The notes under the pieces: model-generated | What the model was told of the DNA's origin: nothing | Seen by the model: only the letters and a program-made list of their open reading frames with translations | The model's database searches: none | Program-made: the position numbers and the translations under genes | Shown here: in pieces, positions 26,483 to 26,555 of the stretch | Position numbering within the stretch: the first letter of the stretch is position 1 | Layout: each line of letters opens with the position of its first letter | DNA from: a virus | IMG/VR virus record: IMGVR_UViG_3300031669_006556 | Reading direction: 5' to 3' (one strand) | Length of the DNA stretch: 64,000 nt

Positions 26483-26555
26483 CCCTCCCGGCCGGACTCG
26501 AACCGGCGACCTTCTGTTTTAGAGGCAGCTACTCTACCATCTGAGTTACAGGAGG
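26483..26555 (-). tRNA. tRNA-like gene whose anticodon-loop position reads CUA (candidate amber suppressor); anticodon stem is weak
   Basis: Reverse complement: acceptor CCTCCTG/CGGGAGG, D-arm ACTC-AGATGGTA-GAGT, T-arm GCCGG-TTCGAGT-CCGGC, 73 nt. The anticodon arm GCTGC-CTCTAAA-ACAGA has only 3 Watson-Crick pairs, flanked by G.A and C.A mismatches. Confidence 0.4.

Follow-up and report, generated by a model that had tools for sequence, protein, structure and literature searches.

The 73-nt element at positions 26483 to 26555 is best read as a functional, phage-encoded amber-suppressor tRNA, probably of weak strength, that belongs to a huge, Mahaphage-like phage of Bacteroidota with an otherwise standard genetic code; on the sequence comparisons given below we put the probability of this reading at about 0.62. 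The element has the structure of a tRNA and the anticodon CUA, it is conserved in related phages, and no in-frame TAG was found in the accessible data. Throughout, the window denotes the whole stretch of 64,000 nt that was analyzed, and tRNA(CUA) the element itself. The features needed for the argument are the following.

26483..26555, minus strand: tRNA gene with the anticodon CUA, amber-suppressor type (ARAGORN, Rfam, direct reading)
26558..26579, minus strand: 9-bp hairpin AACUGAGGA-UAAC-UCCUCAGUU (RNAfold, −12.7 kcal/mol)
26574..27227, minus strand: upstream ORF of 207-217 aa (ORF list, public gene calls; no Pfam match)
26009..26467, minus strand: downstream ORF of 152 aa (ORF list; no family match)
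27187..27519, minus strand: ORF of 110 aa, used as synteny marker (tblastn)
30771..33224, minus strand: major-vault-protein-like (MVP-like) gene, 817 aa (Pfam MVP_shoulder, Vault_3)

Results

Structure and anticodon of the tRNA gene

ARAGORN placed the gene at 26482-26555(-) with the anticodon CTA at position 34, and Infernal matched it to the Rfam tRNA family RF00005 over the full model (1-71) with 57.7 bits, the gathering score being 29 and the E-value, calculated for the window as a whole, 7e-10. Read directly, the 5' half of the RNA is CCUCCUG UA ACUC AGAUGGUA GAGU A GCUGC CUCUAAA ACAGA, and the 3' half following ACAGA is AGGUC GCCGG UUCGAGU CCGGC CGGGAGG G. The RNA thus reads from a first pair C1-G72 to the discriminator G73, and CCA is not encoded. 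The acceptor, D and T arms, which the initial annotation had called perfect, are all intact, and the D stem (four pairs) and T stem (five pairs) are fully Watson-Crick, whereas the acceptor stem combines six Watson-Crick pairs with one U6.G67. All tertiary positions are present, namely U8, A14, G18G19, G15:C48, U33, U54-U55-C56 and A58. In the anticodon stem we likewise count only the three Watson-Crick pairs reported earlier (C28-G42, U29-A41 and G30-C40), G27.A43 and C31.A39 being mismatched. Cloverleaf arms, score and tertiary nucleotides are therefore those of a canonical elongator tRNA as described by RF00005, and the departure from this model lies in the anticodon stem, which does not have five pairs.

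The anticodon loop reads C32 U33 C34 U35 A36 A37 A38. ARAGORN and the Infernal alignment chose the same 7-nt register, which confirms the earlier placement of CUA at positions 34-36 and supplies the strand (minus) that had not been stated with it. With C34-U35-A36 in a 7-nt loop, U33 on its 5' side and a purine at position 37, the loop has the form of an amber suppressor. ARAGORN gave the gene the label 'Pyl', its default name for a tRNA with the anticodon CUA. tRNA-Pyl is marked by a 3-nt variable loop, an anticodon stem of 6 bp and a small D loop that lacks G18G19, and it is accompanied by pylS and pylBCD genes. The canonical D and T loops and the 5-nt variable loop rule out this identity on structure, and no pyl genes were found among the annotated proteins.

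Carrier phage and genomic surroundings

The window has a GC content of 32.7% and is densely filled with minus-strand ORFs, all genes and 16 further tRNAs lying on the same strand. A second array of 12-13 tRNAs is located just past the window start, as seen in contigs reaching about 3 kb beyond it, and the total for the phage is at least 29 tRNAs. The description of tRNA(CUA) as isolated consequently holds locally, the nearest other tRNA being 9.5 kb away, but not for the phage as a whole. Upstream, ORF 26574..27227 ends with TGA 18 nt ahead of tRNA(CUA). Downstream, ORF 26009..26467 starts 15 nt past it and stops with TAG, read-through of which would add 10 codons before a TGA.

Homologs of the MVP-like protein are encoded on more than 500 metagenome contigs, at 43-82% identity, and a copy is also present on some contigs of high GC that are probably bacterial. 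The MVP-like protein is 50-53% identical to its counterparts in LR756500 (462 kb) and in LR756501/LR756503 (735 kb), which are among the huge phages with predicted Bacteroidetes hosts described by Al-Shayeb et al. (2020), the largest genomes being in the 'Mahaphage' clade. A T9SS sorting domain, a hallmark of Bacteroidota, is found on a cadherin-like protein at 28772-30688 (minus strand). This domain and the similarity of the MVP-like protein to those of the huge phages bear out the initial assignment to a large phage of the Bacteroidota type, and the 'Mahaphage' genomes of Al-Shayeb et al. (2020) are relatives of the huge phage to which the window belongs.

Close DNA relatives of the window were not found in INPHARED. 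Several JGI, ENA and Logan assemblies contain contigs that are nearly identical to the window, and tRNA(CUA) is identical in all six of those covering the site. The phage occurs in the sequencing runs SRR8554503-05, SRR8554511, SRR8554512, SRR8554643, SRR18684945, SRR18684946, ERR5010618 and ERR5010619 and in the JGI metagenomes 3300031539, 3300031565, 3300031566 and 3300031578. None of the public contigs reaches further than 796 nt beyond the window end or about 3 kb ahead of the window start; at the former position, contigs from different samples share their start base, and this common break may be a repeat or a genome end. From about 61187 to 64000, and on to about 64800 in two of the contigs (L007 and L016), a unit of three genes (128, 85 and 110 aa) is tandemly duplicated, and an extra copy past the window end includes an AAA_33 kinase-like gene.

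Several further features of the window were recorded. An NAD-salvage cluster (NadR-like, NAPRTase, nicotinamidase, NAD synthase) and a TonB-dependent receptor (5773-7734) are encoded on the minus strand, as are genes for RNA and tRNA maintenance, comprising Ro/TROVE, PTH2, NUDIX, a RlaP nucleotidyltransferase, a Thg1-like protein and a LigD_N phosphoesterase; a flotillin is present as well. The NAD-salvage and RNA/tRNA-maintenance genes fall within 3915-14204, 21488-23191, 48452-55282 and 62716-63180. Between the MVP-like gene and the tRNA array lies a full-length GOLLD RNA (34385-34868, minus strand; RF02032, 162 bits, E=1e-43), into which a tRNA-like element of 34 bits is inserted at 34726-34795. 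Three neighboring tRNAs with Leu anticodons (CAA, UAA and UAG; 37561-37875, minus strand) are 76 nt long and have no long variable arm, which is expected of bacterial tRNA-Leu. Partial tRNA-like fragments were seen at 38040-38091, 38124-38191 and 38530-38585. Finally, an 84-nt tRNA at 76-159 (minus strand) carries a 14-nt insertion in the D loop and was called Arg(CCG) by ARAGORN, as opposed to an anticodon UUU (Lys) by Infernal.

Conservation of CUA tRNAs in related phages

Of 502 confirmed relatives, 80 metagenome loci were retrieved with a profile of MVP-like proteins. ARAGORN detected a CUA tRNA near the MVP-like gene in eight related loci, namely L031, L034, L039, L041, L044, L045 and L071 and the IMG/VR locus L021, in several cases about 1-7 kb downstream of the gene and in L071 upstream. 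The scores of these tRNAs range from 51.7 to 68.7 bits, and at least five different tRNA bodies in this genomic neighborhood have retained the anticodon CUA. The CUA tRNA of L021 is syntenic with that of the window, because it is directly preceded by a homolog of ORF 27187..27519; another homolog of this ORF is located at the end of L019.

The closest counterpart, in L034, is an ortholog with 92% identity (6 of 74 positions differ), while the neighboring MVP-like protein is 73% identical. All six differences are compensatory or lie where tRNAs tolerate change. At 10:25, A-U has become G-C in a compensatory exchange, and the others are found at position 16 of the D loop, at position 44 and in the 27:43 pair, which was mismatched already. 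Anticodon loop, T arm and acceptor stem are unchanged, the C31.A39 mismatch is kept, and the anticodon stem of the L034 ortholog likewise forms just three pairs.

Three-pair anticodon stems are found in 6 of 198 tRNAs of the phage group, and three of these six are CUA tRNAs. Those CUA tRNAs of the relatives that have a full 5-bp stem carry the identical loop CUCUAAA. Mismatches at 31:39 occur in 4 of 11 CUA tRNAs as compared to 8 of 185 others, a contrast that becomes weak once related sequences are counted singly. The eight non-suppressor tRNAs with A/C at 31:39 were found among the tRNAs of the window, L003 and related loci, and seven of them read codons starting with U (Leu-CAA, Leu-UAA, Phe and Trp). 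Since relatedness weakens the contrast and other tRNAs with A36 are mismatched too, we regard the enrichment at 31:39 as a tendency only.

A decaying or non-functional tRNA, left over from the rapid turnover of tRNA genes in megaphages and with CUA arisen by point mutation, for example from Lys-CUU, is the alternative that fares best, and we consider it unlikely. The anticodon stem with its three pairs would be in line with decay or poor function, but the C31.A39 mismatch recurs in suppressor tRNAs of the cultured phages XacN1 and phiM12, and A/C mismatches at 31:39 are also seen in a few other A36 tRNAs of the present phage group. The recurrence of the weak stem in the relatives, in XacN1 and in phiM12 therefore points to a recurring design and not to decay. 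Further points on the side of decay are that minimum free energy (MFE) folding of the RNA alone gives no cloverleaf (z = −1.5), that the window also holds tRNA fragments and odd tRNAs, and that the counterpart in L021 lacks G18G19 and carries two mismatches in its acceptor stem. On the other hand, the retention of CUA in the various bodies, all with the good scores given above, and the L034 ortholog, which is more conserved than the MVP-like protein next to it and has a compensatory change in the D stem, argue for maintenance. The gene is thus unlikely to be the decoy or pseudogene that had been suggested; tRNA(CUA) is a real, conserved gene.

A hairpin adjoining the CUA tRNAs

The hairpin at 26558..26579 ends 2 nt ahead of the 5' end of tRNA(CUA), and its 5' arm includes the TGA of the upstream ORF. 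On the plus strand, the same palindrome followed by a T-run scores as an intrinsic terminator (26552-26575). A strong hairpin is located 0-7 nt upstream of the CUA tRNA in 10 of 10 loci examined, that is, in the window, in the eight related loci listed above and in LR756501 (690555-690584). Several of these hairpins are followed by a U-run and resemble intrinsic terminators, and the arm motif GCATGGACA...TGTCCATGC is common to three relatives. The 45 nt upstream of CUA tRNAs have a mean MFE of −14.6 kcal/mol, compared to −5.2 kcal/mol for 115 other isolated tRNAs, defined as those not closely preceded by another tRNA (Mann-Whitney p = 6e-7).

The presence of a hairpin ahead of the CUA tRNA at every locus examined is a new observation. 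The hairpin could merely be a terminator or stabilizer of the upstream gene. Its constant fusion to CUA tRNAs suggests that it may limit or time the expression of tRNA(CUA).

Genetic code of the window and of related loci

In the window, 121 non-overlapping minus-strand ORFs cover 87% of the sequence, and TAG is found in them only at the end or 5' of start codons. For ORFs of at least 100 aa, reading TAG as sense raised the coverage less than reading TGA as sense, and in no case did a single TAG separate two real ORFs of the window. TAG is the stop codon of 13 of 116 ORFs (about 11%), or of about nine when spurious ORFs are left out; of the genes of the window, about 10% end in TAG, examples being 26009-26467, 27813-28247 and 42353-42907. 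Read-through of TAG extends these window ORFs by 0-27 codons. For ORF 11335-11790, whose TAG had already been taken as genuine, this was corroborated, read-through adding only 17 codons before a TAA.

The stop codons of related loci were scanned by all-versus-all tblastn on a non-overlapping gene set from 79 low-GC loci (888 kb). The conserved alignments contained no in-frame TAG, compared to five TGA and two TAA, which we treated as noise. One MVP-like homolog, at position 1822 of L101 (Ga0066636_10016900, GC 54%), is the only one with an in-frame TAG, which is aligned to a lysine of the query; this high-GC contig probably does not belong to the phage group. Neither RF2 nor a dedicated aminoacyl-tRNA synthetase was detected in Pfam and PHROG matches, among the scanned window proteins and the precomputed Pfam annotations covering 16-36 and 39-64 kb.

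The complete genome LR756501, the largest published phage genome, is deposited in GenBank without annotation. It encodes 59 tRNAs, among them two different CUA tRNAs in tandem at 690585-690738 (locus L116, 5174-5327), which are 4 nt apart, have the loops UUCUAGC (G37) and CUCUAAA (A37) and both start with C1-G72. Under code 11, ORFs of at least 100 aa cover 89.0% of the genome; TAG as sense adds 2.0% and the control, TGA as sense, adds 3.4%. TAG accounts for 31 of 754 stops (4.1%). ORFs seemingly split by TAG were ruled out, as they proved to be neighboring genes or collagen-like GXY repeats read off-frame. When 10 large ORFs of LR756501 were scanned against PHROG for structural genes, no usable match came up. 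T4 protein baits located the portal, the prohead protease, the major capsid protein and pieces of the terminase; none of these genes has an internal TAG. The capsid protein has more than 2000 homologs, and the best 120 of them are almost all full-length under code 11. Four clusters of capsid homologs (P0053, P0029, P0072 and P0013) all come from samples other than that of the present phage. In 10 portal-capsid loci of several further relatives (L131-L140), 28,060 aligned residues include no internal stop. LR756501 is a distant relative, its MVP-like protein being 50% identical and few other genes being common in the compared regions.

The second alternative is a phage with partial, code-15-like recoding, in which early and auxiliary genes such as those of the window keep to the standard code, and in which tRNA(CUA) would bring about the code change by decoding, late in infection, in-frame TAG in structural or lysis genes elsewhere in the genome. 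Suppressor tRNAs of gut phages are strongly tied to recoding, and code-change genes sit in standard-code regions, yet the proportion of recoded jumbo phages outside rumen, pig gut and human gut is reported as 0-0.65%. The Mahaphage clade includes the TAG-recoded Lak phages (Al-Shayeb 2020; Borges preprint), but LR756501, despite its two CUA tRNAs, is unrecoded genome-wide and in portal, capsid and terminase, and the capsid homologs point the same way. The window does not contain hallmark late genes; a candidate lysin at 44238-45026 is, however, intact, the share of genes ending in TAG is that given above, and RF2 and synthetase are missing from the matches. The hairpin ahead of tRNA(CUA) could gate the timing of recoding as well as that of weak suppression. 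Because of the evidence from the clade, the TAG stops of the window and the rarity of recoding outside rumen and gut, we consider recoding in late genes beyond the window improbable. The partial or late-gene recoding contemplated in the initial annotation was accordingly not recovered in the window, in the 888 kb of related loci, in LR756501 or in the portal-capsid modules of relatives, and the comparison of codes with a count of in-frame TAG, which it had proposed as a check, revealed no excess in the window or in LR756501, the late genes of relatives included.

Amino-acid identity

The closest paralog of tRNA(CUA) in the phage is a tRNA-Lys(CUU) with 72% identity and one base different in the anticodon loop. 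In GenBank, a tRNA-Asn of the 634-kb phage LR745206 (80%) and a tRNA-Trp (77%) match best, so that the body of tRNA(CUA) is about equally like Lys, Asn and Trp tRNAs. No simple bacterial identity rule fits the combination of G73 and C1-G72. Exact-pattern scans of 185,579 bacterial and archaeal GTDB genomes found no tRNA with the same 5' half or the same T-arm/acceptor 3' end, and a search for exact matches to tRNA(CUA) in IMG/VR was negative. Amber suppressors of Escherichia coli are often charged by GlnRS or LysRS, both of which rely on U35.

Discussion

Proposed mode of action

We infer the expression, processing, charging, decoding and biological role of tRNA(CUA) as follows. The gene would be co-transcribed with the upstream minus-strand ORF, through or past the terminator-like hairpin, and the tRNA would be released by RNase P and 3'-end processing. 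Since no CCA is encoded, it would be supplied by the host. With A36-A37-A38, the tRNA is a likely substrate of MiaA, which would give i6A37. A host synthetase would then charge it, LysRS or GlnRS being the most plausible candidates, with recognition centered on U35. The charged tRNA would compete with RF1 at UAG codons. As no gene in reach has an in-frame UAG, the expected effect would be low-level read-through of UAG-ending phage genes, and of UAG-ending host genes too, as well as the rescue of amber mutations. Judging by its three-pair stem and the hairpin ahead of it, the suppressor may be weak by design or gated.

It is far less probable that tRNA(CUA) is read in a non-standard way, through a 9-nt loop (C-CUCUAAA-A) or a shifted or four-base register, or that it acts outside translation, as a decoy for tRNA-targeting host defense or as a primer: the conserved C31.A39 mismatch would allow such a 9-nt loop, and the RNA-repair and tRNA enzymes of the window (Ro/TROVE, Thg1, RlaP, PTH2) hint at a conflict over tRNAs, but U33 and A37 are canonical, ARAGORN and Infernal both pick the 7-nt register, and the loop CUCUAAA is the same in CUA tRNAs of relatives whose stems have all 5 bp.

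Relation to known suppressor tRNAs

The preferred reading, an amber suppressor in a standard-code phage, has its closest parallel in phage XacN1 (AP018399; Yoshikawa et al. 2018, PMC5852040), which encodes two CUA suppressors, has 18 TAG stops, and for which no read-through targets were found. XacN1 resembles the phage of the window in being a jumbo phage that keeps the standard code, in its very large number of tRNAs and in the location of its suppressor tRNAs between protein genes. In both cases the loop is CUCUAAA, and the anticodon stem has three pairs, with C31.A39 and 27:43 mismatched. TAG stops are rare in XacN1 (PMC5852040). In contrast to the present case, the host of XacN1 is proteobacterial (Xanthomonas), its suppressor genes are two tandem copies inside terminal repeats, CCA is encoded, the acceptor stems are unrelated and there is no strong upstream hairpin (MFE −6.7). 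The tRNA(UUA) of phiM12 shares C31.A39 with tRNA(CUA) of the window but has no such strong upstream hairpin, and Atu_ph07 carries a UCA suppressor. The phage described here resembles this group in having at least 29 tRNAs, a suppressor anticodon (CUA) and no in-frame targets in the window or in relatives.

LR756501/LR756503 are huge phages with about 32% GC, an assigned Bacteroidetes host (Al-Shayeb et al. 2020) and the standard code. LR756501 shares with the window a CUA tRNA with C1-G72, a hairpin abutting it (at the first tRNA there) and an MVP-like gene of 50% identity. Unlike the window, it has two different CUA tRNAs, one of them with a G37 loop; their anticodon stems have the full 5 bp, they stand in another genomic neighborhood, and the tRNA bodies are not orthologous.

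TAG-recoded (code 15) phages comprise Lak, crAss-like, Garnet, Amethyst and others (Borges et al. 2021/22; Peters et al. 2022). They have in common with the window a phage-encoded CUA tRNA in a standard-code region and Bacteroidota hosts, and Lak phages belong to the broad Mahaphage clade. Some code-15 phages encode RF2, whereas none was seen here or in the relatives examined. In the model of Borges et al., rare TAG stops together with an acquired suppressor are a step before recoding, and the case of tRNA(CUA) fits this pre-recoding state.

Significance

In summary, tRNA(CUA) of the window joins a known but functionally unexplained class, the suppressor tRNAs of standard-code jumbo phages. 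A suppressor tRNA in a phage is usually taken by gene callers and annotators as a flag for an alternative code. Here, a conserved family of CUA tRNAs in environmental megaphages coexists with standard coding in the accessible genes, and a CUA tRNA alone should not set off a code-15 annotation. The family adds further cases to the question raised by XacN1, namely what role suppressors play in standard-code jumbo phages, and the fused hairpin and the recurrent C31.A39 mismatch are testable handles on the strength or timing of suppression. More speculatively, and in our estimate doubtful, the CUA tRNAs of these megaphages may constitute a conserved 'gated weak suppressor' module and not just a relic of recoding, the terminator-like hairpin being fused to the tRNA in all 10 loci examined and several of the tRNAs having anticodon stems that would be weak by design. 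If so, standard-code phages would turn on amber read-through to a fixed degree or at a fixed moment, and it might serve to damage UAG-ended host proteins, to sense co-infecting phages or to extend a few phage proteins.
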